Virus record (IMG/VR): IMGVR_UViG_3300005647_000006
Origin: a virus
DNA: 42,734 bases
Strand: one strand, 5' to 3'
Shown: positions 18,268-42,009 of the stretch, piece after piece
Position numbering within the stretch: position 1 is the first letter of the stretch
Layout: every line of letters begins with the position of its first letter
Translations under genes and position numbers: made by a program
Notes under the pieces: model-generated
What the model was told of the DNA's origin: nothing
What the model saw: only the letters and a program-made list of their open reading frames with translations
The model's database searches: none

Positions 18268-19119
18268 TTAATCGTCTTCAAATAGATAAATATTTTCTAT
18301 TGCTGATTTAATTTGCGTATATTCATCTTCATTTCCTTTCGCAAATCCATTAATATTTAATAACGATAAACTTTTATGATCTTTAACTTCTAATAAAGAC
18401 ATTTGAATTGAATTTTTTACTTCTGGATTTACATAGGCACCAAAAATCCACGGTCTTGCTATACTTGGAAATCGCGTCAATTCTTTAATTTCAACACCTC
18501 GCTCGATCAAACTCTTAAATACAGCCTCGGTTATCGCACCCACTTCATATTCTTCATTGCCTATAGAATTACCAACTAAATCATATCTTCCAAGATAAGT
18601 TATATCACTCAAATCAGAACCACTGATGCCATTTTTGCGTAAAAATTGTTGTGATAGATATCGTCCGACTGATGATGCTTCATCACCAAAAGCAAATGAC
18701 TTACCTTCAATATCTGCAATATCTTTAATGGTAGAATTTTCATTAACTATGATTATGCCGTAATATTCTTTAACATCTCTAGTTAGCTCAACTGCTGCTA
18801 TTGAAATATCAGGATTTTTTTGTTTGGCTTGAACATAACTAACTGGGCCAAAGCGAACTAAATCAAAATCACCCTTGACGAATGCTTCCAATGCTTCGCT
18901 GTAGGTTTTAGTTATTTTAATTTCGATTGTATAATCAACGCCCGTATCTTCTCTGAGCCTACGTTCTAATAATTCTATGATTGGAGTGTATTTTTTAATT
19001 AACCAAGATGGTTTTTCAGACGAATATAAGCCAAAGACAAGCTCATGATCATTGTCTTTGTTTGAATGCGCAGATATTGGTACTAGTGAGAGAACCAATA
19101 ATAACAGTAAATGTTTCAT
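18268..19119 (-). CDS. PhnD-like phosphate/phosphonate ABC substrate-binding protein
   Basis: Signal peptide; GPVSYV, YYGIIIV, GKSFAFGDEASSVG motifs. Confidence 0.85.
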   Translation of the reverse strand: MKHLLLLLVLSLVPISAHSNKDNDHELVFGLYSSEKPSWLIKKYTPIIELLERRLREDTGVDYTIEIKITKTYSEALEAFVKGDFDLVRFGPVSYVQAKQKNPDISIAAVELTRDVKEYYGIIIVNENSTIKDIADIEGKSFAFGDEASSVGRYLSQQFLRKNGISGSDLSDITYLGRYDLVGNSIGNEEYEVGAITEAVFKSLIERGVEIKELTRFPSIARPWIFGAYVNPEVKNSIQMSLLEVKDHKSLSLLNINGFAKGNEDEYTQIKSAIENIYLFEDD

Positions 19120-19153
19120 AATTGCTAAATCCTAATATAGTATTTAGCAATTA
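19119..19153 (-). promoter_or_regulatory. Late promoter CTAAATA within a 12-bp RBS-occluding hairpin
   Basis: TAATTGCTAAAT / ATTTAGCAATTA perfect inverted repeat. Confidence 0.75.
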
Positions 19154-19585
19154 ATCGTATATAATGTCCGAATCGTAGTCTTCTGAATCATCCTTTTCTG
19201 TTGTTGTTTCTACATCAACGAAAAGATTAAGATCTAAATCATGCTTATTTCGATACTCTACCGTCTGCTTAAATACTTTGCGAGCAATTGATAGAAATTC
19301 CACGACTGGAGACAGTCTCAGGACTTCTGTGGGGCTTTCAGCTAGACATACTGTAGTGCCATCACTTACTGAAATAATGCCGCCTGTGGCTGCTGTAGTT
19401 GGATGCCAGTAGAAACTAACCATATGGTCAGTTTTATTTTTGGGGGAGCGATTTAATCCGATATATACCTGATGTGGATTGATGTATTTTGTTTCAGAAT
19501 TAATAAAAACAACCCATATAGGTCGAGCTACATAATCACACAGTTCAAGTTTGTCTTGAATGATTAAATTCATTACGCACAACAA
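19151..19585 (-). CDS. Hypothetical protein
   Basis: ORF track. Confidence 0.65.
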   Translation of the reverse strand: MLCVMNLIIQDKLELCDYVARPIWVVFINSETKYINPHQVYIGLNRSPKNKTDHMVSFYWHPTTAATGGIISVSDGTTVCLAESPTEVLRLSPVVEFLSIARKVFKQTVEYRNKHDLDLNLFVDVETTTEKDDSEDYDSDIIYD

Positions 19586-19998
19586 TCTTGTTTTTTACGA
19601 GAAAATAGATTTAATAAATGAAATGAAATTAATAATGTTCCACCAAGAATAGCAAAAATGGGATTTTCTTCGTGTGATTCAGCATGTGGACTGAAATTTG
19701 GAGCATCTACATGAGTGATGCCGTGTGCATGTCCTGCATGACTAAAAAATTCAATTGCTAAATCGGTTCCTAATAATAAAATACCAGCAATTCCAAAAAA
19801 CAAAACAATGTGTTTACAGTGATGTTTGTAGGCGTGGTAAATGGCATGACCTGAAATTATTAAAGCCAATGCAAAAAATACTGAGTGAAATGCTATTGAC
19901 CCCAATATGAGAAAAAATGGTACTGCCAAGCAATGAATAATGCAAGCACAAGATACAATTATTCCAATGTGATCATTTATTGATTTTTTTGTTTTCAT
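19573..19998 (-). CDS. MerC-domain, His-rich membrane protein
   Basis: DxIGIxxSxACIIHCLAVP and ILGGTLLISFHLLN motifs; His-rich loop. Confidence 0.8.
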   Translation of the reverse strand: MKTKKSINDHIGIIVSCACIIHCLAVPFFLILGSIAFHSVFFALALIISGHAIYHAYKHHCKHIVLFFGIAGILLLGTDLAIEFFSHAGHAHGITHVDAPNFSPHAESHEENPIFAILGGTLLISFHLLNLFSRKKQDCCA

Positions 19999-20024
19999 GT
20001 TCAGAGTATATCCTATTAAAACCT

Positions 20025-20048
20025 AAAAGGGAAGCATATTGCTTCCCT
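20025..20048 (-). terminator. Rho-independent terminator after hsp20
   Basis: AGGGAAGC-AATAT-GCTTCCCT-TTT. Confidence 0.75.
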
Positions 20049-20070
20049 AATAGTTATTAAAATCACAGAA

Positions 20071-20541
20071 TTAATTAATATTGATTTCCTGCTTTTTTGG
20101 TTCTTCTGTGTTATCCATAATTTCAATTCGCAAAAGACCATCTACAAAATCCACCTTTTCGATAGTCATATCAGGTGCTATTGTAAAAATCTTCTCAAAT
20201 TTCTTTTTGGATATTCCACGGTGCCGATATGAACGAGTTGGATCTTCACCAGTTGAATCGTCGTTAAATGTTTTCATATCTGGTTTGGTTGCAATCGTTA
20301 ATTTATTATTGAATGTCGATACCGTTAAATCATCTTTCGTGTAACCAGCCAAAGCTAATTCTATAAAAGCTTTCTTATCTATACGATAAATGTCGTAAAA
20401 TGGAAAAGATGAAATCTTCCCAGCATTATCGACGGTTCTGGATACAGTTTTGAACATATTTTCAAAATCGTCAAAACCAACGGTTTTTCCAAAGATGTGA
20501 TCAAAAACTGAATTCAGGGGATCTGTGTTAGTGTTTTTCAT
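20071..20541 (-). CDS. hsp20: Small heat-shock protein (Hsp20/IbpA family); start revised to 20541
   Basis: FPFYDI, IELALAG, YRHRGIS..F..IF, DGLLRI; AGGAG RBS. Confidence 0.92.
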   Translation of the reverse strand: MKNTNTDPLNSVFDHIFGKTVGFDDFENMFKTVSRTVDNAGKISSFPFYDIYRIDKKAFIELALAGYTKDDLTVSTFNNKLTIATKPDMKTFNDDSTGEDPTRSYRHRGISKKKFEKIFTIAPDMTIEKVDFVDGLLRIEIMDNTEEPKKQEININ

Positions 20542-20610
20542 AATATTTCTCCTATTAAGCAAGTTAAATTAAATTGTGAGCCTTCTAAGAAGCACTCACA
20601 TATATTTATA
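20542..20610 (-). promoter_or_regulatory. Late promoter TATAAATA plus ROSE-like RNA-thermometer 5'UTR
   Basis: Upstream hairpin and CUUGCU-UAAU-AGGAG hairpin. Confidence 0.7.
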
Positions 20611-20795
20611 TTAAAAAATCAGTAGTGTTGTTATTATTGTTAATATTATACATATTAACAATAATGCACAAATTTCGCTGGTATTTTTTATACTTTTATT
20701 AACAGAATCATATAATTTAATAAAAAATATTATAGTCAATAAAGCAAAGCACCATGCAAAGAAATACAATTCATTCATATAAATTTAATATCCTG

Positions 20796-21371
20796 TTAAA
20801 ACATCACATTAGTTAGTAATTCTAAATCTTTTTGGTATTCATCGTGAGCAGCTTGTGCTTCTGGAGTTCTGCCTAAGATAGCAATCGCTGCAAACATTTG
20901 ATATTTCAGCAATCCACTATTGGTGTTTGTACGAATCCATTTGGCTTCATCTATGTTAGTACCATTTGAATCGTATTCTTTGAAGTAATGCGATAATCCC
21001 TGATCTTCATCATCAAGGATGGCAAACGAACCAACATAGTGACTGTCATAATATTCTTTTATTTCTATACCGTGATGACTTGATGACATTGAGCGCCTTA
21101 GAGTTCTATCGATAAATCTTTCTCTTGGAAGTGTCATACCAGCTTCTACTAAGAATTCGTATAGTTGATCATCCGAATGTTCATGTCGCCAGTTCGTGCT
21201 AAAGACAACATCACAACCAGTCTGTATCATGATGATTTCGATCATAGCTACACAGCCACGAGAAAGTATCATCGATACGTCTTCTTTTTTAGCGCGAGCG
21301 GAATATTCCATTAGGCTGGCGTCGTTGGTGATTACACCATCAAAGTCTAAAAATAGTATTTTGTCATTCAT
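20796..21371 (-). CDS. HAD-family phosphatase (Swiss Army Knife RNA-repair type); start revised to 21371
   Basis: FLDFDGV, VFSTNWR, FAILDD, GL motifs; TATAAT 6 nt before ATG. Confidence 0.85.
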   Translation of the reverse strand: MNDKILFLDFDGVITNDASLMEYSARAKKEDVSMILSRGCVAMIEIIMIQTGCDVVFSTNWRHEHSDDQLYEFLVEAGMTLPRERFIDRTLRRSMSSSHHGIEIKEYYDSHYVGSFAILDDEDQGLSHYFKEYDSNGTNIDEAKWIRTNTNSGLLKYQMFAAIAILGRTPEAQAAHDEYQKDLELLTNVMF

Positions 21372-21407
21372 AATCCCATTATAATGCAATGAGATTAAAA
21401 AATAAAG

Positions 21408-22019
21408 TTACTTGTCACACAATTCAGTACGTAATTGGTCTAATTCTGCCTTATATTCTGGTGGGAAATCTACTTTATAGGTTAATCCAATACGCAGGTA
21501 TCGTAGGACAAATGCACACTTATTTTTGGGAGGTAGCCATTGAGTTGGATTCTTTGCACCCTTAGCTCGATTTAATGAAGCTTCGACTGCTGCTAAATTA
21601 ATTGGATCGTTCGCAAATTCTTTACGTTTTTCTGGAGTCCATTCATGTGAGCCGTTCAACCAACTGTCTTTCAAAGAAAAAATATGATCAATATCTACAG
21701 TACTTGCATCAGTTAAAATATCATCCGTGAATATTGAAATCCAACGACCTCTTACTACTCGACATTCTTTATCATCTGCATAATAAACCGGACTGGTCGA
21801 TTGATTAATCAATTCTTCTTGTCTTGTATTTTGACAATCTCTATCAACATCAGCCCAACTACTACCAAAATTCTTTCGTTCATATTTTGGTACATCAGTA
21901 CCTTCTACTCTACTAACATCTGCAATTAATATTAAAATTATTAATACGAGACTCAATACTAACCTAAAGATTAGTGTCGCATTGAAGATGCCTTTAATTT
22001 TTTCGTTTAGTTTACTCAC
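21408..22019 (-). CDS. Membrane-anchored HNH nuclease (DUF1524 type)
   Basis: W.D.D.DCQNTR, DIDHI, FANDP.NL.AV..S.NR.KG...W.PP; N-terminal TM. Confidence 0.88.
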   Translation of the reverse strand: MSKLNEKIKGIFNATLIFRLVLSLVLIILILIADVSRVEGTDVPKYERKNFGSSWADVDRDCQNTRQEELINQSTSPVYYADDKECRVVRGRWISIFTDDILTDASTVDIDHIFSLKDSWLNGSHEWTPEKRKEFANDPINLAAVEASLNRAKGAKNPTQWLPPKNKCAFVLRYLRIGLTYKVDFPPEYKAELDQLRTELCDK

Positions 22020-22024
22020 ATAAA

Positions 22025-22062
22025 CCTCCCTGCAATTAACCTATTTATCAATCACAGGGAGG
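22025..22062 (-). promoter_or_regulatory. Late promoter GATAAATA in the loop of an SD-sequestering hairpin
   Basis: CCTCCCTG...CAGGGAGG. Confidence 0.8.
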
Positions 22063-22070
22063 GTATGGTC

Positions 22071-22928
22071 TTAAATCACTGCTAAGTTTGTAGAACAATG
22101 TGAACAAAAGTTAGCAGATGGCTTGTTTTTCTTCTTACATGTAACACAAACCTTTTTTTCTCGTGATTTTTGTACACGTTTAACTGGTTGATTATCTGCG
22201 GTTTGTCCAAGTAATTTCATAACAATTACATGAGTTTCTTCTTCTACTGGAAAGCCAGAAACTGTTATAAATTTTTGATCTGATATAGAACCCGGCACCG
22301 TTATACCATTTTCACTTTCTGGCTCATCCATACCTTGTGGAGTTACCACATCTGAAGTTGTTGCTGAAGAAGCTGAAAGATTAGCATTGACTGACATTGT
22401 GGATACCATGTCAGGTGTGCTACCAACGCTCTGACTTCTTAGAAAATTATTTGATGTTACCGTAGGTTTAAATTGCTCAGGATTAAATTCAGTACCTTTA
22501 TTCCATTCAGTTGGGCCATAAATCTGATTATTTCCATCTGGTTTATATTCCCACATAGGAAACATTATTGGATTTCGTATTACTTCTTTTTCGAATTGAT
22601 ACTCGACACGAACAATACCATCTTCAACGCCAATCCCACGAGTTTCTTCGATTGATCCAGTACGTTCTATGAATCGGAAACGATTGCCATAATCATTGTC
22701 TTTAACAAATCGTTCTATATCGATTGATTGATTTGCTTTGACGATAATTCCACCATCACATACATTATTACCATCAAGAGTAATATTAACGATAGCTCGT
22801 TTGTTGTTAAGATTTTTAATTAAAAGTGAATATTCACATCCATATGGAAGGTATATTTTATCACCATCTTCGCGAAGTATTTTTCCGTTGTTTTTAATGC
22901 ACACTACTAGTTTTTGATTGAACACCAT
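22071..22928 (-). CDS. Conserved-type phage protein with C-terminal zinc ribbon
   Basis: GKILRE..IYLPYG.EYS..IKNL; GITVPGS; CVTC..FCSHC. Confidence 0.8.
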   Translation of the reverse strand: MVFNQKLVVCIKNNGKILREDGDKIYLPYGCEYSLLIKNLNNKRAIVNITLDGNNVCDGGIIVKANQSIDIERFVKDNDYGNRFRFIERTGSIEETRGIGVEDGIVRVEYQFEKEVIRNPIMFPMWEYKPDGNNQIYGPTEWNKGTEFNPEQFKPTVTSNNFLRSQSVGSTPDMVSTMSVNANLSASSATTSDVVTPQGMDEPESENGITVPGSISDQKFITVSGFPVEEETHVIVMKLLGQTADNQPVKRVQKSREKKVCVTCKKKNKPSANFCSHCSTNLAVI

Positions 22929-23057
22929 TAGGTTTCTCCAAATTGTAAAGTGATTCTGACTAGCTCACTTGTTAATTCTTAAAGTCAGATTGGTATTATT
23001 ATTTATGTCTCTCACACAAACGGTGAGTATAAATAATTAAGTGTTAGAGATTATTAT

Positions 23058-23396
23058 ATGAAAATTGAAGAATTAATGCAAGATGATATAGAATTAAAAA
23101 TTCTGTGTGAAGGTGAAATTCTTGAAGAAGTTGAATATCAAGGCAAAAAAGTCACGCTTGGCAAACCAACTAGAGATACTGGTGGAAATAAAAAATTCAA
23201 GGTTTATGTAAAAAACGATAAAGGTAATATTGTTTGTGTTCGTTTTGGTGATCCTGACATGGAAATCAAACGGGATGATCCTAAACGTCGAAAGGCTTAT
23301 CGTGCACGACACAACTGCGAAGATCCCGGCCCTCGTTGGAAAGCAAATTATTGGAGCTGTAAACAGTGGAGAGCTGGTGCGAAGGTGATGGATTAA
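23058..23396 (+). CDS. Small basic T4-like-phage protein with capsid-targeting-like N-terminus
   Basis: KKFKVYVKN..G...V.FGDP.M...RRK.YRARHNC...YWSC; TATAAATA at 23028. Confidence 0.85.
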   Translation: MKIEELMQDDIELKILCEGEILEEVEYQGKKVTLGKPTRDTGGNKKFKVYVKNDKGNIVCVRFGDPDMEIKRDDPKRRKAYRARHNCEDPGPRWKANYWSCKQWRAGAKVMD

Positions 23397-23399
23397 TTA

Positions 23400-26039: not shown

Positions 26040-26375
26040 TTAATTTTTTCGACGTTTTTTAACCAACTTTAATGGGCGGGGTTTTTCAAAGGTAATTCCC
26101 TTTTTGTATGCTGGACGCCAAGCACCAAAACACTGCGAATGCTCTTTATCTACTGCGTATAAATCTTGTGAAAATTCTTCTTCTTCACCACCACTTAATG
26201 TGACGGCTTGACCAGAAGAATTAACTACATCAAAATTATCCGCACCATGTGAATTTTTAATATCAGAAAACCAATGTGCTGGTGCACCAAACCATAAACT
26301 TTTTTTAGGGCGCTTGCCATCATCAGGTCTTCCCGATCCTTCACCACCTTCTATTAGCCACTGTTTGAAACTCAT
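26040..26375 (-). CDS. Putative internal head protein (MSFKQWLIE leader)
   Basis: Leader resembles T4 internal-protein capsid-targeting sequence. Confidence 0.6.
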   Translation of the reverse strand: MSFKQWLIEGGEGSGRPDDGKRPKKSLWFGAPAHWFSDIKNSHGADNFDVVNSSGQAVTLSGGEEEEFSQDLYAVDKEHSQCFGAWRPAYKKGITFEKPRPLKLVKKRRKN

Positions 26376-27670
26376 TACAACTTATCCAATTCACCGTTAA
26401 CGTTATAACCAATTTTTGGAACCGTAATGCTATTAACATATGAACGCAATGAACGAGATTCACCACCTTGAGCAATGAATATAGCAACATCACTAGGTAT
26501 ACGATATAACATTGGTCCCATAAGAGTAGTCATAAAGGTTTGTGCTTCTTTAAGACCAGAAACAGTTCCCTTCTCAAGCATTCCACGTAGATCATCAAAA
26601 GCATTTGCAAGATCAGTATAGAAAACTTTATCATCAGTTTTTGTACTGATTAATTCTTCAGCAGTTTTTCTTGCATCAGCAGCACTTTCTTTTAATTGCT
26701 TTTTAAGTGCTGGTGGTATTTTAAGTTTAACTTCATCTTCGTTATCAAGTGCATCTTGCTCAGATGGTTGATAAATTCTAGATTCTTTATCTTTCATACC
26801 ATACACAGTATCGTATTTTGGTGATGGTTTAATATCACCATTGAAATTACCTGCTACTTTATTTACGGTTTTCAATACATTATTAGTCGAATGATCAGCA
26901 TAGTAATGCTCATTTACTGTTTTACTTTCCTTAACACATTTAGCACAAGGCTTTTTCGCTTCTTTAGCGTGATAATCGGCGAGATTAGCAGTTGGCTTAG
27001 CAAGCTCATGTCGTTGCTTACTAAGTGATTGAGCCTTAGTTCGATTTAATTTTTCTAAACGTGTGTGGCTCTTGTTATGTGCCAAGCAGCTCTGACATGA
27101 AGTATCTTCCGTAACTTTATTAATTTTGCTTTCAGTATCTTTCAATGTTTTTGCCTTTGGTGATGGTTCGTTATTTTTCTTTTTTTCTATTTCTTCACAC
27201 GAAGCGCATTGACCCATTGTAGAATTCTTTACATGTTTTTCTGAGGCTTCTAGATTTCCTTGTTCCTTTTCTTCTCTAGACTTTACAAGTTCTTCGCGTT
27301 TGTACTCACCACAAGTACAATTAGAGTGTGGGCTTCCAGCATCTTCGGTTACAGTTTCTGCTTCTTTAGAAGCTTTTTCTTCAAGTTCATTTTTCATAAG
27401 TTTGGCTCGTCGTTTGGCTTCTCGTTCAGCTTTAGATTTATCATCTTTATTAAAGATTGCGATAGTATCTAGGCATTTGCGGGTTTTTATATTCTTATAG
27501 AGCTTAGTTATGGTATTAATTAATCCTTGAGCATTAGTTCGATGAACATACTCTTTATAATCAACAGAATCGCGACAATCAAGTACCAACCAAAAATCGT
27601 TAGCAGTTCCACGCTCAGTGGCTTCAGCTAATACACGACTATTAATTGCACTTAATTCTTTGTAACTCAT
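26375..27670 (-). CDS. Putative internal head (poly)protein with Cys/His modules
   Basis: VLAE/VTE/VNE sites; CxC and CxxC pairs; late promoter at 27707. Confidence 0.6.
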   Translation of the reverse strand: MSYKELSAINSRVLAEATERGTANDFWLVLDCRDSVDYKEYVHRTNAQGLINTITKLYKNIKTRKCLDTIAIFNKDDKSKAEREAKRRAKLMKNELEEKASKEAETVTEDAGSPHSNCTCGEYKREELVKSREEKEQGNLEASEKHVKNSTMGQCASCEEIEKKKNNEPSPKAKTLKDTESKINKVTEDTSCQSCLAHNKSHTRLEKLNRTKAQSLSKQRHELAKPTANLADYHAKEAKKPCAKCVKESKTVNEHYYADHSTNNVLKTVNKVAGNFNGDIKPSPKYDTVYGMKDKESRIYQPSEQDALDNEDEVKLKIPPALKKQLKESAADARKTAEELISTKTDDKVFYTDLANAFDDLRGMLEKGTVSGLKEAQTFMTTLMGPMLYRIPSDVAIFIAQGGESRSLRSYVNSITVPKIGYNVNGELDKL

Positions 27671-27755
27671 ATTTTAATCTCTAAAAAAAGTTTGATTGTT
27701 ATGAGTTATTTATTAACTTTAGAACCAAAAATTCAGAAATATCGGTTAAAAATGC

Positions 27756-27783
27756 AAAAACGGCGATATTATTAATATCGCCG
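27756..27783 (-). terminator. Rho-independent terminator after RNA ligase
   Basis: CGGCGATAT...ATATCGCCG-TTTTT. Confidence 0.8.
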
Positions 27784-27830
27784 CTAATGTCCAAAGGGAA
27801 CAGATATACTGAATTTTGTATATTTTGCGG

Positions 27831-28820
27831 TTATTCATCAGTTTCTTCCAGTACACCATACTTAAATGCTGGTGTTATAGTTTTAACATTCTTCTCTAAG
27901 ATTTGCTTGTAATCGACAGGTCGATCTAAGTACAAGTTCATCACCGCACCAAACGCATAACTTTCTACTTCTGCTTTGGCTTTAATTGCATAGTCCTTAC
28001 GCTCAAGATCTTTATTTATTTCATAGAATGATTCTACTGATGAAATAAGATCAGCTATGATTGGTTGAGCAAAATTCTCCATAGCGACTATAACATTAAT
28101 CGCATCTGGATTATCATGAAAGATACTTTTCAAATCATCACTGGCGTTTGCCACCACTGCCATGAACAATGCGTTCACGTTCTTAACAGTGTCTTTTAAT
28201 CGATGTTGAGTAACATACCATTCAGTCTTTCGCTTCATGCGAACATCATCTTCGAATACGTAAACGTATCCTTCGATACCAGTTTCACTCAATGCTAATT
28301 TATTAAATTCTTCTGGATCGGTAATTAGTGTTCGCTCAACCGAATTCAAGACCAGTATTTCGCGCATCTGTTTTTTGTATTCATCAGAACAATCACCAAC
28401 CAAACCTTCGTCATGACGATAATCAATGATTTGACCATCACTATTTCTTCGCACACCAAAAATTATTAATTGTGGTTTATCATAAGCCAATACAATTCTA
28501 GATTCTGGCTTAGTTGAATCGCACCACTCACCAACAATTGTGTATCCAGCATTATGATAATGTCGCATTGCTCTTTCCAAATCAGCATTTTCTGGCAATT
28601 GTAGATATGATTCTGCATCTTTAGCCATAATTGATTCTAATGCTGTTTTTGATTTTAATCGCATAGGACCATTATCAGAGTATGTGGCTATCATACTTCC
28701 GTCTGCTTTATTTTCTGCCCATTTAAACTTACTCCAATTTAATGGTTTAAGATGTGGAAAATAATCATACAATGATTCTAATCCATTTGCTTCAACTAAG
28801 TCATCGAATTCTTTTTTCAT
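27831..28820 (-). CDS. rnlA: T4 Rnl1-type RNA ligase, C-terminal fragment (catalytic motifs)
   Basis: KADGS (motif I), RIVLAY, IEGYV, KRKTEWYV, ASDDLK, RKDYA match T4 Rnl1. Confidence 0.9.
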   Translation of the reverse strand: MKKEFDDLVEANGLESLYDYFPHLKPLNWSKFKWAENKADGSMIATYSDNGPMRLKSKTALESIMAKDAESYLQLPENADLERAMRHYHNAGYTIVGEWCDSTKPESRIVLAYDKPQLIIFGVRRNSDGQIIDYRHDEGLVGDCSDEYKKQMREILVLNSVERTLITDPEEFNKLALSETGIEGYVYVFEDDVRMKRKTEWYVTQHRLKDTVKNVNALFMAVVANASDDLKSIFHDNPDAINVIVAMENFAQPIIADLISSVESFYEINKDLERKDYAIKAKAEVESYAFGAVMNLYLDRPVDYKQILEKNVKTITPAFKYGVLEETDE

Positions 28821-29673
28821 AGCGTTCTATTAAGTCCTGTAATGATCCATTTGATTTATTTCCCTTTGTTATATTTTTTCCTGCTGGGATAAATCGTAAA
28901 TTTATAATATTACCTATTATTTCGGGTGGTACATCTTCCATAAAACCTTCGTACATAGAAATTACGTGATCTAAATGATATGGATTTTCATCTTTGCCAA
29001 TAACTCCCCGCAATTCATGATTTTCTAAAGTATTAATTGGCTGTTTTCTAGTAATCAATTCAACTTGTCTTTTATATTCTAAATATTCATCTCGAAGTTC
29101 ATAAGGAACCATATTACCATTATTAATTCTTTTTTTAATTGCTTCTTCTGTCCAACCAGAATTATAATCTTCTCCATATATTCTAACTAAAGTTTTTCTT
29201 CTTTTTTTCTGGGCATTAGAATAATCAAAAGTGTGTTTCACATTATATCTAAACTCAATACCTCGCTTAATTCGTTCATGTGGTAATTGAGCAATAAATT
29301 CGACACCATATCGTTTTTTATTTGTATCCCTAACTACCATTTGCCATTCACTATGGTTTGCTCTACATTTTACTGAACAATAAGTTGAATATCCCAGACC
29401 ATATCTTTTAAATTTAACCATTTTTTCACAAACTGGACATAAAGGTAATATATCAACATCATTAATTATGACAAATAATCGTTCATCCAATCTAGCATCA
29501 TATGGAATAAATGATGTTTTTTCATATATATTAGTTCGCAACTCTACTAAATTATTTTTAATCCAAAATTTTTCTGTATAGATATATTTGTTTATTATTC
29601 CGCTTTTAAAAAATAGTTTATTTTTTATTTCTCTTTTTAAATCTGTTGAATACATCTTCTGATAATCTCCCAT
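28801..29673 (-). mobile_element. HNH homing endonuclease inserted in the RNA ligase gene
   Basis: CPVC...YCSVKC; KRYG repeats; YHLDH...NL.FIP..KN..K. Confidence 0.85.
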
Positions 29674-29971
29674 CTCTAACTAATGCTTCTGCTAGAGTAT
29701 TTATATCGTCGGACGCCTCGTAAACGTTAAAAAATTTAGGAAATGGTAATGATGCTAATGCAATAGGTTCTTCACCATTCATTTGAAACATGATGCCACG
29801 GCATTCTAATGCAGATGGAAGTAACCAATCAGAATATGATCCCATGTGATAGCTGAAAACTCGATAATGGTTTCCATCTCGTTCGTGATCTTTAAAGAAA
29901 AACATTTTCTTCTTTGATCCAGCGACCAGCGCCATCAAGTCAGAATATAGTGTTTGTTGATAATCGTTCAT
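29618..29971 (-). CDS. rnlA: T4 Rnl1-type RNA ligase, N-terminal fragment
   Basis: YRVFSY..SYSDWLLP.ALECRGIMF...KFFN..E matches the T4 Rnl1 N-terminus. Confidence 0.9.
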   Translation of the reverse strand: MNDYQQTLYSDLMALVAGSKKKMFFFKDHERDGNHYRVFSYHMGSYSDWLLPSALECRGIMFQMNGEEPIALASLPFPKFFNVYEASDDINTLAEALVRDGRLSEDVFNRFKKRNKK

Positions 29972-32683: not shown

Positions 32684-33037
32684 TTATTTTCTTTTAAGAA
32701 TCCACATTTTTCGGCCCATATGGTACTTCAATTTTTGGATTCGATAATCTCCACTCTTAACCAGTGAATCAACAATGCCAGAAACAGTCCTACGTTCGTG
32801 TCCATCTTTAGCATGAAGCGTTACGGTTTTTCGTGTATTTTTATTAAACTTGTTAAAATCACTCAATGCTATAACCGAAGCATTCTGAACAAGCTCTCTA
32901 TTTGAATTGAAAAATTTATTAAATCGAGCACTGTTTTTAGCTTCGCCAAGAATTTCAGCCACAGCATCATCAATACATTCCATTAAAGGAATTTCCGTAT
33001 CGTTTTTCCGCTCGTTCAATTCTTTCAGTATCGACAT
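32684..33037 (-). CDS. Putative internal head protein (MSILKELNE leader)
   Basis: Acidic leader to ILGE, basic C-domain; late promoter at 33064. Confidence 0.6.
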   Translation of the reverse strand: MSILKELNERKNDTEIPLMECIDDAVAEILGEAKNSARFNKFFNSNRELVQNASVIALSDFNKFNKNTRKTVTLHAKDGHERRTVSGIVDSLVKSGDYRIQKLKYHMGRKMWILKRK

Positions 33038-33105
33038 TAATCTTTTCCAGCAAATGATACATCTATTTAGTATAGATAAACATCATTGTGCTAAAAAATA
33101 TTAAT
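33036..33105 (-). promoter_or_regulatory. Long start-codon-sequestering hairpin with late promoter CTAAATA at its apex
   Basis: Nested pairs AUUAAU, UUUUUU/GGAAAA, AGCA, AAUGAU, AUCUAU. Confidence 0.75.
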
Positions 33106-33925: not shown

Positions 33926-34147
33926 TTAATACCTACCAGTTAAACTATCCAGTGCGCGTGTTAATTTTGCAGTAGATTGTTTTTGATTAGAATCCAATCG
34001 TTTAGTTTCACGTTGGAGTTTATTGCAGGTATTTAGGAGACTTTTGTTTTGGGCGAGAAGCTGAGTTACAACCTTTTCTAATTTATCATTGCGAGCAATT
34101 AATTTCTCGATAGCCTTTTGTTCAGCCGTTTTTTCTTCCTTTGCCAT
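33926..34147 (-). CDS. Small coiled-coil protein
   Basis: Heptad pattern; GAGG RBS. Confidence 0.75.
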   Translation of the reverse strand: MAKEEKTAEQKAIEKLIARNDKLEKVVTQLLAQNKSLLNTCNKLQRETKRLDSNQKQSTAKLTRALDSLTGRY

Positions 34148-34322
34148 TGATCATCGCCTCTCTTAACTTATCGTGTATGTTATTTAGAGCCTTTTTGTTA
34201 TTAGCACAATTGCATGGTTTGCCAGTCACAGCAGTATATGCTGTTGCTAACCTATCCAATCTAGCGGCTCTGAGAGCGTCGGAAGTTAAATCGCCTAGTT
34301 TACGTTCTGTTTTTTCTGCCAT
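34122..34322 (-). CDS. Small late protein with CxC motif
   Basis: LGD.......LD.LA......GKPCNC; CATAAATA 6 nt before ATG. Confidence 0.75.
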   Translation of the reverse strand: MAEKTERKLGDLTSDALRAARLDRLATAYTAVTGKPCNCANNKKALNNIHDKLREAMINGKGRKNG

Positions 34323-34345
34323 AATTAATATTTATGGCGATCAAA

Positions 34346-34758: not shown

Positions 34759-35355
34759 TCAAATTCTAAAACTTTGAGAATTAAACCACGCATCTAATTG
34801 ATTTGGAGAATAGTCAACGTATCTTAATTTTATTCCAGCCTCTCTGAACATTTTTTTGGTACATATAAAACTTTCTTCCCAATAACTTCCGTCTTTTCCA
34901 GAACTAGTTTCGTAAAGTGATTGACCATTTTTATGAACAATTACTTCAGTGATTCCATGTTGAATAATTATACCAGCGCAAGTATTACATGGTGTTAAAT
35001 TAACGTATATAGATGCATCGATTAATGACATTCCATTTCGTCCAGCATTCGACATTGCATTAACTTCTGCATGAATCATCCATTTATATTTTTCTGGAGA
35101 TTCTAATATCTCTGGCCTTGCGCTTACGCCTCTAGGAAAGCCATTATAGCCAATTGTTTTAATTGTCATGTCTTTACCAACAACCACAGAACCAATCTTA
35201 GTACGAGGATCGTGCGATTTTGCAGCTATGGTGTAGCACATACTAATATATGTTTGATCCCATGATGGTCGCTTAGGAGGCTTTGGTGGATGATCTTTAA
35301 GATTTTTAACCACTTTAATACTAGGATCAATCGGACTAACGTTATTCTTTTTCAT
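34759..35355 (-). CDS. dCMP deaminase
   Basis: RPSWD, S.DP.TK.G, GYNGFPRG, HAE.NA, PCxxCA. Confidence 0.92.
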   Translation of the reverse strand: MKKNNVSPIDPSIKVVKNLKDHPPKPPKRPSWDQTYISMCYTIAAKSHDPRTKIGSVVVGKDMTIKTIGYNGFPRGVSARPEILESPEKYKWMIHAEVNAMSNAGRNGMSLIDASIYVNLTPCNTCAGIIIQHGITEVIVHKNGQSLYETSSGKDGSYWEESFICTKKMFREAGIKLRYVDYSPNQLDAWFNSQSFRI

Positions 35356-35769
35356 TTAAGTAGCTCCTGTTATTCGATTATATATTTCCGTATCTCTATT
35401 GTCTTTGAACGTATCTGATTGACATTTAAGACAATTTACTACTAACCAATTAACATCCTTTGATTTTATACCCCAAATACCATCAGTGCTTGAACATTCC
35501 ATACACACAGTTGATGATTTTTGTTCGTATCGGCGCATTACATCTATAGCAGTTTTTAATGGATTTTTATTTTTTATATATTCAACATATATTACTAATA
35601 CACCAAATTTTTCTTTAATTAATGTTAGTTTATAATCTTCATCCACAGCAACTAATTCTGTATGTAATTCTTCAACCAATGATTTCCATCCTACAGGAAT
35701 GTGTGATGAATATTTTTCATCTAAATGTTTTTTCATTTCTTCTGGTATGTTTATGTGCTGTTCTTTCAT
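35356..35769 (-). CDS. Conserved-type phage hypothetical protein (GW...IKEKFG.L..Y...CxxC...CxxC)
   Basis: Motif recalled from a widespread phage family. Confidence 0.8.
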   Translation of the reverse strand: MKEQHINIPEEMKKHLDEKYSSHIPVGWKSLVEELHTELVAVDEDYKLTLIKEKFGVLVIYVEYIKNKNPLKTAIDVMRRYEQKSSTVCMECSSTDGIWGIKSKDVNWLVVNCLKCQSDTFKDNRDTEIYNRITGAT

Positions 35770-37031
35770 TTCAAATTCTCCACCAAATCATCTATTGATT
35801 CTATGTGAGCTAAACATAAATGCTGTAATTCTGCAAATGTTCTAGGTTCCTGTGTTGGTATATCTGCGGGAGATATCTCAGATTCATAGAAATGGTTTAT
35901 GTGATTTACTTGTGAATCATGATTTAATCTTCCAATGTGAATTTTTTGATCTAATCTGCCGGGTCGAATTAATGCACCATCCAAATCATCTGGATTTTTA
36001 TTTGTAGTAGCTACAACAATACATCCATTGAAATCAATAATACCATCAAGTACATTTAAAAATTGTTGCATTGTTGATTCATCTTTCTTTTTTGGTTCTT
36101 CGGCTGTCTCTGATTTTTTATTGCCAGCACCCCTTCGTTTCTTTCCGATAGATGTAAAATCTATATCTTCAATTACAATTATAGAGTTTGGTTTTATCTG
36201 GTGCATCAATTGAGAAAAATTAGAAATTGATTCTGCTTTTAAAGAATACAAATTCAAACTATGTTTGTAGGAGAGATGTGAAATAATTGAAGTCTTCCCA
36301 GTACCCGGCTCTCCATACAATAAATAACCTCTTTTGAATGGAACATTTCTTTTCTTATATAGTTCCTTCTTCTCCAAAAAGTTTTTAATATCATTTAAAA
36401 AATAATTGGCTTGCTCACCCACTGGTGGATATACCTTCTTAGGCATTCCCAAATTGCGCCACCATTGTGAATATGAATCTGATGTATCATAGACAAACGG
36501 GCCATCATCATCTTCTAAATGAGAAATTGCGCTGAAAAATTTAAGAATATTTAATGCTGAAAAAGAAAAGAATCTAACGTACAGTGATTCTGTCTGTGCA
36601 TAGACTTGCTTGTTTTCAATTTTCTGTCTTGATATAGACATTAGTTTATATTTTGGATGGAACATCCATATAGTACCGTAGCCTGCAACTAACTTATTAA
36701 CTTTCTTTTCTTTAGTAACTGATGTTTCATAATCATCATGAGCAGTTTCAGTTTCACCACGAGGTGTTATTATTTTATAGGTGCGTTGAAATCTAGTATA
36801 CTGTTGATTTTGTTCAATCCAGATATTAATTTTATTATAATCAGGATCTGCAACATAGACTTCAAGTTCTCTTACAATCATATTGTAAAGAGATTTTTGA
36901 AAACCATTCAGTACTGGTGCTATGAAACCCCAAATAAAATGAAATGCAGTAGATAATGCTGCAAGGCCAATGAGAGAGGCTGACATCTCCCCTAAGCCCA
37001 TACTGTCTAAATATGATGCAAATTGTTCCAT
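35766..37031 (-). CDS. BCS1-like membrane-anchored AAA+ ATPase
   Basis: N-terminal TM; PFKRGYLLYGEPGTGKTS, IVIEDID, LNVLDG, TTN...LD.ALIRPGRLD. Confidence 0.9.
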   Translation of the reverse strand: MEQFASYLDSMGLGEMSASLIGLAALSTAFHFIWGFIAPVLNGFQKSLYNMIVRELEVYVADPDYNKINIWIEQNQQYTRFQRTYKIITPRGETETAHDDYETSVTKEKKVNKLVAGYGTIWMFHPKYKLMSISRQKIENKQVYAQTESLYVRFFSFSALNILKFFSAISHLEDDDGPFVYDTSDSYSQWWRNLGMPKKVYPPVGEQANYFLNDIKNFLEKKELYKKRNVPFKRGYLLYGEPGTGKTSIISHLSYKHSLNLYSLKAESISNFSQLMHQIKPNSIIVIEDIDFTSIGKKRRGAGNKKSETAEEPKKKDESTMQQFLNVLDGIIDFNGCIVVATTNKNPDDLDGALIRPGRLDQKIHIGRLNHDSQVNHINHFYESEISPADIPTQEPRTFAELQHLCLAHIESIDDLVENLK

Positions 37032-37070
37032 GATATAATTATTAATTAATGAGAAATAATTATATCATGG
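37028..37070 (-). promoter_or_regulatory. Extended -10 promoter (TGATATAAT) in a perfect 16-bp inverted repeat covering the ATG
   Basis: CCATGATATAATTATT / AATAATTATATCATGG. Confidence 0.75.
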
Positions 37071-37100
37071 TTTTACATTCCAAAATACCTTAATCTAAAA

Positions 37101-37307
37101 TTATTTAGCTTTCCACGGAAAATACTTTGGTCCCTTATTAAGCAAATGAGGATCTATGCCGATATCAAATAATTGTTGATTGGATAAAAACTTTAGCTGT
37201 TTATATGCCATTTTTTTATCGCGTCGATCTTTAAAAAAATTTCTAACCATTTCAGCTCGTAAAATATGTGCGTGTCTTATGTGTTTCTGGTAATCAATTT
37301 GTTCCAT
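37101..37307 (-). CDS. DUF1127-family small protein
   Basis: RR...AYKQL..LS...L.DIGI motif. Confidence 0.8.
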   Translation of the reverse strand: MEQIDYQKHIRHAHILRAEMVRNFFKDRRDKKMAYKQLKFLSNQQLFDIGIDPHLLNKGPKYFPWKAK

Positions 37308-37421
37308 GATGGAAAATATCCCCTTAATTTAAATACTATTATACCTACTATATAGTATAATAAGGGATTGTAAATCTTAGAAACTGACTACTTTAATATA
37401 TGCCTTAATGGAATGAATTAA

Positions 37422-38024: not shown

Positions 38025-38278
38025 TACATTAATCCAGTTAAAAATGCGCCTAGTTTTTCGATGCCAAGATAATATGCACCAACAACCACGGTGATCCATA
38101 TGGCACCGTTTTTCATCCATGCTGCTACAATTCCAAAAGCTTCGTTCTTTTTAACAATTTGTAGTATGTCAGGATGGCGTTCGACTATCTTCAAAAGACC
38201 TTTAAGATCTTCTTGAGATAGATCGGACAATTTTTGAAGCATTTCCTTACGCTCCGGTGACATGTCATTTAAATCCAC
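38024..38278 (-). CDS. Small protein with C-terminal TM (holin-like topology)
   Basis: C-terminal hydrophobic helix; TATAAATA at 38316; GTG start in hairpin. Confidence 0.6.
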   Translation of the reverse strand: MDLNDMSPERKEMLQKLSDLSQEDLKGLLKIVERHPDILQIVKKNEAFGIVAAWMKNGAIWITVVVGAYYLGIEKLGAFLTGLM

Positions 38279-38346
38279 TAGCAAATCTCACATTTTAATT
38301 AATAATTATAATAGATATTTATAGATTTAGCCTAGTGAAGCTTGAA

Positions 38347-39792
38347 TTAAATTAAACCAACGCCAATTGATGTTCTATCAAAACCATCATCTGTTTTGCC
38401 TACGGTAGTATTACCTGTGAATGTTCCACCAGAATCTAAGCTAATAGTTTGATTAGTACCGAACGCTGCCACGTCTGGTGTATCAGCAGGTTCTGATTCG
38501 CCCTCTGCGACTATAACGCCAGATGATTCAACTCCACTAGCAGTAAGTTGACCACGTTCCTCAGTTCCAACTCCAAGCCTATATTCTAACCATTCATAAG
38601 GTATTACACGAGTCCACTCTCGTTGATCATATCTCCAAGTAAATTTTAATACTTGAAGTAAATTTTCACCGCCTGATATCGGACTATACAATTCAAATGG
38701 TATTCCTATTTCATGAAACAGATCTGCCACTGATACGGACAGTCCAAGTATTTCTGTGTCAACACTTTTTAATATTAATAATCCATAATTTGGAATCTTC
38801 TTTCCAAATTCTATTGTTGCAGTACCATCCAACACTGTGTTTATTTCTTCAATAAGAGTATCTAGTCTAGTAACATTATCACCAGTCACTCTAATTACCT
38901 TCGCTCTTTGATTACCTTCAAGTCCCTTAACTCCATTGGTTGCAGAATTTAAACGTTCGAATGTAAATGAATATGTTTTGGTGGAATCTAATTTTGTTAA
39001 AATGGATCTATCATCAATTGCAGGAAGTGGTATATAAATTTCTGCATTATCACCATCAACTGTTGTTGATACTGAAGTATTTGAATAGTCATTTTCTCCA
39101 TCAATAGAATAATCATAATCAAATATAATTTGAACCGTTGCTTCACTAACAATTGCTACTGTAGGTGGACTATCATCAATCGGTGTTAAGTTGGCTGGTT
39201 GGCCTGTTACGTTACTTTTAAATACTAATCCATGTTCGCCTGTTTTATAATCCAAGCTTACATATGTAACAGTTCCATCTAAACCATTTATAGATATAAT
39301 TTCATTAAGTTTATCGATTAACTTATCATATGTTTCAATATCAGCCCCATTAATAATTCTTTCACCTACTTTATCTCCAAAACCAAATTTAAATCTAAAG
39401 TTTCTGGTAGTTTCAACATGAGTTAATACGCGATCTGCTGGTATGTTTTTTAGCTGCATTGGTTGTGCACTATTGAATGGGCCAGTGCCTTGATTTGTAT
39501 CGATAGTATTAATACTATTGACTACATCTAATAGCTCACCTAATTGATCTGACATGGCTACACCACTGTCATCATCTTCATCTAACTCATCATCGATTCT
39601 ACTTGTATCAGCAAATATAACTTTTTCAGTTTCAATAATATCACTGTCAGCAATTTCTGCTGCTGTCATATCAACTGTATTTTTAACCGTACCGTCAGAA
39701 ATACTTTGACGTTTTTCGTCAATACGATTTAATATTAAACCTTTACGTGAACCGTCAGGCGTAACATCAACGATGTAATCAGATAGTGGCAT
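38347..39792 (-). CDS. Putative virion structural protein with internal repeat
   Basis: T.D.LI...N....GT......GL...KS twice; late operon. Confidence 0.55.
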   Translation of the reverse strand: MPLSDYIVDVTPDGSRKGLILNRIDEKRQSISDGTVKNTVDMTAAEIADSDIIETEKVIFADTSRIDDELDEDDDSGVAMSDQLGELLDVVNSINTIDTNQGTGPFNSAQPMQLKNIPADRVLTHVETTRNFRFKFGFGDKVGERIINGADIETYDKLIDKLNEIISINGLDGTVTYVSLDYKTGEHGLVFKSNVTGQPANLTPIDDSPPTVAIVSEATVQIIFDYDYSIDGENDYSNTSVSTTVDGDNAEIYIPLPAIDDRSILTKLDSTKTYSFTFERLNSATNGVKGLEGNQRAKVIRVTGDNVTRLDTLIEEINTVLDGTATIEFGKKIPNYGLLILKSVDTEILGLSVSVADLFHEIGIPFELYSPISGGENLLQVLKFTWRYDQREWTRVIPYEWLEYRLGVGTEERGQLTASGVESSGVIVAEGESEPADTPDVAAFGTNQTISLDSGGTFTGNTTVGKTDDGFDRTSIGVGLI

Positions 39793-39795
39793 TTA

Positions 39796-40038
39796 TTAAT
39801 CTACAAGTTCTGTGTAAGCTGTAATAGCTGATTCTTTAGTTGCGTAAATATCGTCAGCAGACACTATTTCTGAATTGCTAAGTGAAGTAGATACAGTGTA
39901 TTCGATAGTTGTTTTTGTTGACACTACTTCAACAGCCACCTTTATAACTTTGGCTGGTAATACAGAATGTGATTTACCACAATCAACTATTACATATACT
40001 TCGTCGGATGGTTGGTAATCATATGTTATATCTGGCAT
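39796..40038 (-). CDS. Hypothetical late protein
   Basis: GAGG RBS. Confidence 0.75.
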   Translation of the reverse strand: MPDITYDYQPSDEVYVIVDCGKSHSVLPAKVIKVAVEVVSTKTTIEYTVSTSLSNSEIVSADDIYATKESAITAYTELVD

Positions 40039-40042
40039 TTGT

Positions 40043-40216
40043 TTATTCCTCGTTAGAATCTGAATTAAAAATACGCTCTAAATCCTTCTGAAATTTAAAT
40101 TCTGGGTCATAAGCTGCCCGAAACTGATCTTCCTGTTCTGGAGTCAATTCCGGTTCATCCCTCAAACCAAGTTCTGATAAAATCTTTATTAAATGAGCAT
40201 CTTTGTTGTTTGACAT
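40043..40216 (-). CDS. 57-aa late protein, not in ORF track
   Basis: Translated by hand (MSNNKDAHLIK...); TAAATA 5 nt before ATG. Confidence 0.65.
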   Translation of the reverse strand: MSNNKDAHLIKILSELGLRDEPELTPEQEDQFRAAYDPEFKFQKDLERIFNSDSNEE

Positions 40217-40231
40217 ATTGCTATTTATTAA

Positions 40232-41146
40232 TTAGCCACGATATGGTTTCAAAGATTTTGGTAAATATTTCTTTATATTTTTAATCTCTGGATATGCCTC
40301 TATTGCATCCTCTAATTCTATTATACCAGTAAAGTGTCTGCCTGCTTCTATTTTAAGATCAAACCCATGTTCCTGACAGGCGAACATCCATTTTATATGA
40401 ATATCAGAATCGTAATCATGTCCACAGTTAACCAGTCTGGAAACGATGGCTTTATCATATGATTCTTGAACATTAATTAATGAATTAAAACTATGGTACT
40501 GTTGAAGTCTTGCATTTTCTAATCTGGTGGTTTTAATTGTTTGATTTAAATACGAGACTATTCTTACAAATTCAGATAATTGAAAGTTAGGTTTACCTTT
40601 CATCATTGTTTGAAGCATTGCCTTTCGTAGTATAAGTGGTCCAGCGTTTGCATACAGTGAAAAGAAATGCTCATTTGTGTTAGTGGTGGCTCTGTCTGTG
40701 AATTTGCGCTTAGATGCAATATTAGTTAAAGCATCTAATGAATATAGGCCAGATTGAATTGCTGGAAGATCATACAACTTTGCACCAATGGTTCTGCCTG
40801 CATCTCTAAGATAGTTTTCTATCTCTTGTTCTTGACCGCCTGCTTTAATTTTACTTAGGATTTTTAAATGAAGGAAATTTGCTAAATCATAAGCACATTC
40901 AAGTTTAAACATTAATGGTGGTACTTGATCGGTGAGTATTCTTTCTCGGCGTTTTCGTTGTACTTCACGTCGATTAAATTCGTTCTTACATTCTTCTCTG
41001 AATTTATATAGCTTTTTATTCTTTATTAATTTTTTGAAAAGAACTTTCTTACTGGTAAGAATTATTTCGTCTGGTTCAGATGAAACTGAGTTTGTTTCTT
41101 TAAAACGTTCAAATGCTTCTATAACTAATTCATTTTCTATTATCAT
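40232..41146 (-). CDS. Hypothetical protein
   Basis: 304-aa ORF; TTGATT-17-TATAAT promoter upstream. Confidence 0.8.
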   Translation of the reverse strand: MIIENELVIEAFERFKETNSVSSEPDEIILTSKKVLFKKLIKNKKLYKFREECKNEFNRREVQRKRRERILTDQVPPLMFKLECAYDLANFLHLKILSKIKAGGQEQEIENYLRDAGRTIGAKLYDLPAIQSGLYSLDALTNIASKRKFTDRATTNTNEHFFSLYANAGPLILRKAMLQTMMKGKPNFQLSEFVRIVSYLNQTIKTTRLENARLQQYHSFNSLINVQESYDKAIVSRLVNCGHDYDSDIHIKWMFACQEHGFDLKIEAGRHFTGIIELEDAIEAYPEIKNIKKYLPKSLKPYRG

Positions 41147-41198
41147 AGATACTCTCGCTTTTTACTATTATAGTATAAAACGAAAACTGAATCAAACT

Positions 41199-41576
41199 TT
41201 ACTTTGTTAAATATCTTTTAACTATTGCTTCTATGTTTTCACAACCCACAGGATTAGCACTATGGATTTCTATCTTAGGTGGTACATATAATCCATTATG
41301 GTTTCTTGTTGCTAACCACATTGCTATATCTGCGCCAGTAATTTCCTTGTTACCTATAAACGATGCTATATCATGATCTAATGATACAAGCTCGAAATCT
41401 ATTAATTCAAGCTTAACCAAAGCTTCCCAGCCAGTTCTAGCGGTAGTCCATCTATACTCATCGGTATCTTCTGGACATGTTCTTATATCGTCTACGTAAA
41501 GAGCATTGAACCCAGTTGACATAAATTTCTCCCAACGAGAATTTAACATTGTACTGTATTTAATGATATCTTCCAT
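41199..41576 (-). CDS. Cyclic-phosphate-processing receiver (cREC)-like domain protein
   Basis: LYVDDIR.CP...SLDHD...TG.D...IHSANPVG. Confidence 0.82.
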   Translation of the reverse strand: MEDIIKYSTMLNSRWEKFMSTGFNALYVDDIRTCPEDTDEYRWTTARTGWEALVKLELIDFELVSLDHDIASFIGNKEITGADIAMWLATRNHNGLYVPPKIEIHSANPVGCENIEAIVKRYLTK

Positions 41577-41618
41577 TTTTAAAACGTTTATTGATTATTC
41601 AGTTAAATATATTATACT

Positions 41619-41753
41619 CAATTGTTCTGACAAAGTGGTTATTAAATCGATTGCATCATCATAATTATCATCACGATCAGGAGCATTATCCTGTAAATCA
41701 CGAACAACAACTTCCATATCTTCTAACAACTTTTCTATGTCGGATTTAATCAT
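41619..41753 (-). CDS. 44-aa acidic protein, not in ORF track
   Basis: Translated by hand; AGGA upstream. Confidence 0.45.
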
Positions 41754-41757
41754 GTTC

Positions 41758-41940
41758 TTATCCTAGAAGAACTTGTTGGCCGTTTTCGGCAACTTGAGTA
41801 ATTTCGGCGAGGGATTTTTGATCTTCTGGAAGATTAGATTTTGCCATTTCAGCAAGCATCTGTGATTCATGACGCTCAGTTGATACTGGTCTTCCGTCTA
41901 TAGTCACTACGTAATAAGTTTTTTCTTGTTCAGTAATCAT
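41758..41940 (-). CDS. Small hypothetical protein ending GQQVLLG
   Basis: AGGAG RBS. Confidence 0.75.
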   Translation of the reverse strand: MITEQEKTYYVVTIDGRPVSTERHESQMLAEMAKSNLPEDQKSLAEITQVAENGQQVLLG

Positions 41941-42009
41941 TAATTATCTCCTAATTCCTTAATACTTATTAAAGTTAAGAGAGGACGAACCAATTAATTT
42001 AATTATTAA

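Follow-up and report, generated by a model that had tools for sequence, protein, structure and literature searches.

How might a gene with a promoter of its own be kept silent on RNA that reads through from the gene upstream? The question is raised by 42,734 nucleotides (nt) of viral DNA, IMG/VR record IMGVR_UViG_3300005647_000006 (this whole stretch is referred to below as the window), in which inverted repeats lie across the starts of several genes. The 3' arm of such a repeat covers the Shine-Dalgarno (SD) sequence or the start codon, and its 5' arm or loop holds the box (A/C)TAAATA. In the bacteriophage T4 genes e, soc, 49 and I-TevI, an inhibitory structure is known to lie over the translation initiation region, with a late promoter within the region that encodes its 5' strand (PMC3014915). 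Similar leaders have been predicted for gene e in close relatives of T4 (Uzan and Miller 2010, PMC3014915), and the same arrangement is found in I-TevI, I-TevII, I-TevIII, segB and mobE of Aeh1 (Edgell et al. 2010, PMC2988022). On the basis of predicted folding, occlusion of the T4 type with an internal late promoter probably operates at five or six genes of the window, and possibly at eight. These are new examples of the T4 timing device, the mechanism itself being already known. Between a third and a half of the box-headed genes carry such a hairpin. The device is frequent here, at approximately 40% of the box-headed genes with a normal leader versus 9% of the other starts, but it is not a rule.

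In the model envisaged, read-through RNA from an upstream gene on the same strand would hold both arms of the hairpin, such that the SD sequence and/or the start codon would be paired and the 30S subunit could not load. A transcript from the gene's own promoter would begin within the loop or 3' arm, approximately 6 nt past the (A/C)TAAATA box, and, being devoid of the 5' arm, would leave the ribosome site open. Translation would be tied in this manner to the firing of the gene's own promoter. We infer the gp55-type late promoter and gp55 itself, the position of the start, the read-through RNA, the late timing and the repression on read-through RNA.

The putative late-promoter box

The T4 late-promoter consensus is TATAAATA at -13 to -6, and relatives show little conservation of the leading T (PMC1524935). 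Positions 2-8 are the most constrained part of the octamer. The late promoter of Aeh1 is CTAAATA (Nolan et al. 2006, PMC1524935). Within the 45 nt before gene starts in the window, the most enriched 6-mer is that of the (A/C)TAAATA box, with 20 occurrences observed versus 3.1 expected; 20 copies of TAAATA are in the sense orientation there and 6 in the antisense. The preceding base is A at 13 sites and C at six, and T or G at none. All five exact copies of TATAAATA lie upstream of a gene in the sense orientation, the expectation for the whole window being 9.2 copies. A window-wide excess of TAAATA was considered and rejected, given 76 observed copies versus 91 expected. Spacing between the box and the start codon follows a bimodal distribution, with six genes at 5-6 nt, twelve at 20-36 nt and nothing between. 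The box is accepted here as a putative T4-type late promoter at the level of the motif. As in other T4-like phages, the A/T at -13 is poorly conserved, and the C at -12 in 6 of the 19 boxes recalls Aeh1. The window differs from Aeh1 in that the A and C variants stand side by side in one genome.

Predicted masking of the ribosome-binding sites

A total of 84 gene starts, curated by eye, were tested: 12 with a box 20-36 nt upstream, six with a box at 5-6 nt, and 66 without a box. The opening energy of the ribosome-binding site (RBS) is defined as the free-energy cost of making positions -14 to +3 single-stranded. It was calculated for a long RNA, from -60 to +20, and for a short RNA beginning at the predicted late start, which was taken from T4 as lying 6 nt after the box. 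Box-less genes were given a mock start at -19. All energies are model predictions. The null for the opening energies was a dinucleotide shuffle of the segment 5' of the predicted start only; a wider-context run covered part of the set. Excess folding is given as the z-score of the minimum free energy (MFE) against 200 dinucleotide shuffles, and a second, simpler MFE test was applied to the region from -50 to +10. Genes are referred to below by the position of their start codon.

Masking of the RBS with z > 2 was observed for 5 of the 12 starts with a box at 20-36 nt (16889, 19119, 22019, 33037 and 34147) versus 6 of the 66 box-less starts (Fisher p = 0.010; Mann-Whitney p = 0.012-0.019). The pooled Z was 4.9 for the former group, versus 1.2 for box-less starts with a spacer of at least 25 nt and 0.1 for those with a shorter spacer. 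With the second MFE test the proportions were 4/12 versus 5/66 (p = 0.028; Mann-Whitney p = 0.014). At the strong sites, opening of the RBS is predicted to cost 9-23 kcal/mol on the long RNA versus 1-5 kcal/mol on the short one, and at each of them the predicted start, as assumed from T4, is situated within the loop or 3' arm. Gating was associated with the CTAAATA form of the box in this small sample (4 of 6 gated, namely those at 16916, 19141, 33064 and 34181, versus 1 of 12 for ATAAATA; Fisher p = 0.02).

Listed below are the six hairpins in which a stable helix including the SD sequence and/or the start codon folds beyond shuffled sequence (z of -3 to -5.7).

19119-19153, minus strand: hairpin with a perfect 12-bp stem upstream of the PhnD-like gene 18268-19119
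22025-22062, minus strand: 16-bp hairpin before the GmrSD_C-like nuclease gene 21408-22019, which has a GTG start
16899-16929, minus strand: 11-bp perfect hairpin before the gene 16677-16889 (70 amino acids, aa)
33036-33105, minus strand: long imperfect hairpin of 30 pairs (4 G-U) before the 117-aa gene 32684-33037
27663-27708, minus strand: hairpin upstream of the 431-aa gene 26375-27670, its perfect 9-bp stem closing a 28-nt loop
34318-34338, minus strand: 7-bp stem with the ATG of the 66-aa gene 34122-34322 in its 3' arm

In the hairpin before the PhnD-like gene, CTAAATA occupies positions 19141-19147, the loop contains the predicted late start (~19135), and the A of the ATG is the last base of the 3' arm. 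The MFE z is -4.26, and the predicted cost of opening the RBS is 12.9-13.9 kcal/mol on the long RNA versus 1.1-3.3 kcal/mol on the short RNA (z 4.7-6.8). The stem before 22019 consists of eight perfect pairs followed by an extension with four G-U pairs. Its box (22042-22047) is positioned in the apical loop, its 3' arm is the GGGAGG SD sequence, and the late start is predicted at ~22036. Here the MFE z reaches -5.74, the sense strand folding with -24.0 kcal/mol versus -14.4 kcal/mol for the antisense, and the opening energy is 22.9 versus 5.0 kcal/mol for the long and short RNAs, respectively (z 4.25).

The remaining four hairpins display the same architecture with different degrees of support. 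Before 16889, CTAAATA lies at 16916-16922, with a predicted start at ~16910, and the 3' arm overlaps part of a GGGA SD sequence (MFE z -3.03; opening energy 11.5 versus 3.0 kcal/mol, z 3.99). Before 33037, CTAAATA (33064-33070) is located at the apex, the predicted start (~33058) falls in the 3' strand, and the helix extends to the base preceding the ATG. Its MFE z is -4.40, with -22.8 kcal/mol for the sense strand versus -14.8 kcal/mol for the antisense, and opening costs 10-12.4 versus 1.9-4.9 kcal/mol (z 2.2-4.4). At 27670 the box occupies positions 27707-27712 and the 3' arm overlaps the ATG; the MFE z is -2.97, and the opening energy of 7.2 versus 2.8 kcal/mol corresponds to a weak z of 1.4. 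At 34322 the box (34329-34334) and the ATG are 6 nt apart, and for this reason the gene is placed in the apparently leaderless class described below. The two MFE tests give z-scores of -2.95 and -3.86 for this start, and its opening z is again weak, 0.9-1.95.

Nine such hairpins had been reported in a preliminary description of the window, and their coordinates proved accurate: the MFE helices span 19153/19119, 22062/22025, 27708/27663, 33105/33036, 34338/34318 and 41982/41947, and in these six the box is indeed found within the 5' arm or the loop, with the 3' arm extending as far as the SD sequence or start codon. Excess folding was confirmed for the hairpins at 19119, 22019, 27670, 33037 and 34322. 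The opening energies bore out strong masking at 19119, 22019 and 33037 (z 2.2-6.8) and weak masking at 27670, 34322 and 38263. The four hairpins at 23058, 38263, 41940 and 12681 showed no excess folding, and three of these, 23058, 41940 and 12681, no excess opening energy. That list was also incomplete: the clear case at 16889 had been missed, as had the weaker ones at 34147 and 29673.

Apart from the box and an SD-like word that recurs, the stems have no sequence in common, and the proposal that each arose separately stands; they are best regarded as independent constructions. The word, TTAGAGA(T/G), recurs before box-headed starts at 23043-23051 (plus strand), 27678-27686 (minus), 29674-29682 (minus) and 13392-13400 (plus).

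Every gated gene is preceded by a gene on the same strand, and a pattern scan revealed no terminator-like site before 16889, 33037 or 34322. On the minus strand, boxes of the late and the sigma70-like kind alternate; close to box-headed genes lies a gene of early type, that for dCMP deaminase. Judged from this gene order, read-through from upstream into the gated genes is plausible.

Several observations weigh against T4-type occlusion or limit its reach. Within the gene upstream of 19119 there is a weak terminator-like site (19510-19525). The hairpin before 22019 itself matches a loose, weak terminator pattern with three consecutive U residues. At 16889 a sigma70-like pair, TTGACA plus a TATAAT-like element, overlaps the CTAAATA box, and its promoter class is thus ambiguous. 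A strong terminator-like hairpin at 27759-27785, just upstream of 27670, makes a gate at that gene less needed. Four of the nine hairpins first listed are no better than shuffled sequence, and when the box is at 20-36 nt, 7 of 12 genes, including the endolysin gene at 13407, are without excess masking. The same holds for hsp20 (20541) and 22928, whose leaders are long and whose boxes match exactly or nearly so, and among the starts with a box at 5-6 nt only 0-1 of 6 is gated, the others showing no excess masking. The preliminary description had taken the device for a general rule that allows late genes to lie scattered among early ones; with 5/12 and 0-1/6 gated in the two classes and an ungated endolysin, that claim was overstated.

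Predicted masking at sigma70-type boxes

The largest outlier among the control starts is that of the AAA ATPase gene at 37031, where the strongest masking in the window is found. Two hairpins are relevant here.

37028-37070, minus strand: 16-bp perfect repeat with TGnTATAAT in its 5' arm and the ATG of the AAA ATPase gene in its 3' arm; z 8.9
21371-21400, minus strand: 11-pair stem with a TATAAT box before the gene 20796-21371; z 4.0

Given these two TATAAT-type boxes, the masking design is not specific to late boxes. The sigma70-type cases suggest a common logic whereby a gene is translated only from its own promoter. According to the corresponding alternative, the hairpins would insulate translation from upstream transcription regardless of temporal class, and late timing would be one use of them. 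The masking at 37031 and 21371 is what such a function would call for, as is the overlap of the box at 16889 with a sigma70-like pair. Nevertheless, the sigma70-type cases number just two or three, and most TATAAT-headed genes are without masking. We regard this alternative as unlikely, and note that it would refine the T4 model rather than contradict it. Also doubtful is its extension to genome-wide insulation, in which hairpins bypassed by the gene's own promoter, with boxes of both the late and the sigma70 type, would have been rebuilt on captured host genes such as phnD. If true, such an insulation rule would mean that early and late genes intermingled on the same strand could be translated strictly promoter by promoter.

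TATAAT also occurs 6 nt before the ATG of two genes, 6673 and 21371 (both minus strand).

Other explanations for the hairpins

The hairpins might instead punctuate transcripts, as weak terminators, as targets of RNase III or other processing, or as stabilizers, with the overlap of RBS and box resulting from tight spacing. The terminator-like pattern at 22019 fits such a role, and the 30-pair duplex before 33037 is in principle long enough for RNase III. True terminators are also nearby: strong terminator-like hairpins are present at 27759-27785 (minus strand) and at 20028-20048, the latter with U-tracts on both strands. A U-tract after the stem, as an intrinsic terminator with its G+C-rich stem and short loop would have, is found nowhere except at 22019, however, and at every strong site the 3' arm either lies over the SD sequence or ends only a few bases from the start codon. 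Moreover, among control starts with a spacer of at least 25 nt, only 3 of 29 are masked, and two of these three have a TATAAT box. Punctuation as the chief function is decidedly unlikely.

Chance palindromes in AT-rich spacers, picked by eye, would account for the hairpins at 23058, 38263, 41940 and 12681, which are no better than shuffles. At 41940 the SD sequence is masked about as well by shuffled upstream sequence, and TAAATA is not enriched over the window as a whole. The enrichment in the unbiased scan of 84 starts is, on the other hand, significant, and the hairpins at 19119, 22019, 33037 and 16889 were equalled or exceeded by only 0-1 of 200 shuffles. Perfect inverted repeats of at least 8 bp with loops of 30 nt or less number 56 in the window versus ~29 in block shuffles, and of the six repeats as long as 11 bp, three lie over an RBS and include a promoter box. 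Chance as the overall explanation is very improbable.

A role at the level of DNA, with the repeats serving as operators or cruciforms at the promoter after the model of I-TevI autorepression at its late promoter, is extremely improbable: several stems are perfect Watson-Crick repeats and hence strand-symmetric, and T4 intron endonucleases are known to have operators that overlap their late promoters (PMC2988022), but a common binding protein is unlikely given stems of no common sequence, and at 22019, 33037, 29673 and 41940 the G-U pairs make the mRNA strand the more stable one. Since these pairs stabilize the mRNA strand by 8-10 kcal/mol at 22019 and 33037, a role at the level of RNA is favoured.

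Hairpins with weak or no support

The other candidate hairpins are as follows.

34147-34192, minus strand: short helix before the 73-aa gene 33926-34147
29674-29705, minus strand: exact TATAAATA at 29698-29705, then a 7-bp stem at 29674-29697, before the HNH gene 28801-29673
38274-38339, minus strand: exact TATAAATA at 38316-38323; marginal
23008-23050, plus strand: exact TATAAATA at 23028-23035 in a 10-bp stem with one mismatch, before the gene 23058-23396
41947-41982, minus strand: 15-pair bulged helix over the AGGAGA SD sequence of the 60-aa gene 41758-41940, with TAAGTA in the loop
12641-12673, plus strand: palindrome between the genes 12410-12628 and 12681-13370

At 34147 the bases just 5' of CTAAATA (34181-34187) pair with a GAGAGG SD sequence. 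The opening energy is 9.2 kcal/mol on the long RNA versus 3.2 kcal/mol on the short RNA (z 5.2), with a z of 2.2 in the wider-context run and an MFE z of only -1.79. In the HNH leader the 3' arm of the stem abuts the ATG, and the hairpin folds with -7.1 kcal/mol in the sense strand versus -3.6 kcal/mol in the antisense; its MFE z is -1.58 and its opening z 0.6-1.2. The marginal case at 38263 involves a long-range pairing of 8 bp onto a GTGGA SD-like word. Its opening z is 2.25 when calculated from the ATG at 38263 and 0.36 from the TTG at 38284, and its MFE z is 0.01. The TTG start was dropped, as the ATG fits better.

The hairpin before 23058 shows no excess over shuffles (opening z -1.5 and -1.7; MFE z -0.39). 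Likewise, folding at 41940 is not beyond that of shuffles (MFE z -1.28; opening z 0.4-0.7), the purine-rich SD sequence there being masked about equally well by shuffled upstream sequence. The TAAGTA in its loop had been put forward as a variant of the box; of nine copies of TAAGTA in the window only one is intergenic, and the variant was rejected. Between 12628 and 12681 lie two divergent boxes, at 12646-12660 (plus strand) and 12662-12667 (minus strand), which of necessity form one palindrome. No excess masking of the RBS was observed there (opening z -0.69; wider-context z 1.65; MFE z -1.29).

Comparison with known systems

The analogy with T4 e, soc, 49 and I-TevI had been correctly stated beforehand (PMC3014915, PMC2988022), and it fits five or six genes of the window well. 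In common with T4 e, soc and 49 are the hairpin over the SD sequence and/or AUG and the TATAAATA-type promoter in the region of the 5' strand; in T4, late transcripts without that strand are translated and the read-through RNA is silent. The gated genes differ, those of the window being unrelated: a PhnD-like gene of bacterial origin, a GmrSD_C-like nuclease gene and genes for small proteins without known function. Whereas the paradigm in T4 is the lysozyme gene e, the endolysin gene here is ungated, and the arrangement in the window is a prediction from sequence and folding.

A second point of comparison is provided by the leaders of T-even homing endonucleases, in which a late or middle promoter gives transcripts that omit the inhibitory structure over the RBS of the nuclease gene. 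The most tightly gated of the box-headed genes in the window, 22019, likewise encodes a nuclease domain, and the HNH gene 28801-29673 is preceded by an exact TATAAATA and then a 7-bp stem. The HNH case is weak, however (z -1.6), and the GmrSD_C-like gene is not a recognized homing endonuclease gene.

A literature search revealed no genome-wide description or quantification of the design. With the examples described here, the well-known timing device of T4 would be present also in an uncultured jumbo phage at a very great distance from T4, and at genes that bear no relation to those it controls there. Although no new mechanism is provided, a frequency with controls is given, together with a short list of leaders suited to reporter tests.

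Genomic context and relatives

The window has a G+C content of 33%, and its genes are mostly small and without known function. It contains one tRNA-Gly gene. The genes with recognizable products include the following.

13407-14213: endolysin
18268-19119, minus strand: PhnD-like phosphonate-binding protein
20071-20541: Hsp20
21408-22019, minus strand: GmrSD_C-domain protein (Pfam GmrSD_C) with an N-terminal membrane anchor
27831-28820: RnlA-like RNA ligase piece, adjoining the HNH gene
28801-29673, minus strand: HNH homing-endonuclease gene, adjoining the RnlA-like piece
34759-35355: dCMP deaminase
35766-37031, minus strand: AAA ATPase

A megablast search of a phage collection with 23 kb gave no nucleotide matches. 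The best protein matches, at 25-44% identity, are in T-even and assorted jumbo phages, and in a tblastn search of phages for relatives the matches were all below 44% identity and in unrelated jumbo phages. Scans of IMG/VR, one for an exact pattern and three with proteins, returned either nothing or a single AAA homologue of 30% identity, and a scan of Joint Genome Institute (JGI) metagenomes with the 431-aa protein (26375-27670) gave zero matches. An identical PhnD protein is encoded on three contigs, the longest of which is 302,232 bp, and on this basis the window derives from a jumbo phage. An alignment scan for relatives with PhnD led to 80 loci. The 21 that were inspected have a bacterial G+C content (38-63%), and these loci were rejected as phage relatives.

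The closest relatives of the PhnD-like protein are 35-44% identical to it, and a signal peptide is present. The gene looks like a host-derived auxiliary gene. As the retrieved homologues are bacterial and only 35-44% identical, the leader must have been built after capture of the gene. The GmrSD_C product has a hydrophobic anchor, with a mean hydropathy of 2.95 over 19 residues from residue 15, and may be an exported or membrane nuclease.

Starts with a short spacing and other repeats

At six genes the late box lies 5-6 nt before the ATG with no SD sequence: 4724 (minus strand), 6022 (plus), 16357 (minus), 34322 (minus), 40216 (minus) and 42333 (minus). A start of the T4 type at these genes would therefore yield a leaderless mRNA. 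The pattern occurs 12 times in the window versus an expectation of 4.3 ± 2.1, and 6 of the 12 are gene starts.

Finally, a perfect inverted repeat is located at 20633-20665, with arms of 14 bp around a 5-nt loop. It lies inside a 55-aa open reading frame, 20611-20778, which may not be a gene, and it is positioned just upstream of the exact TATAAATA of hsp20.

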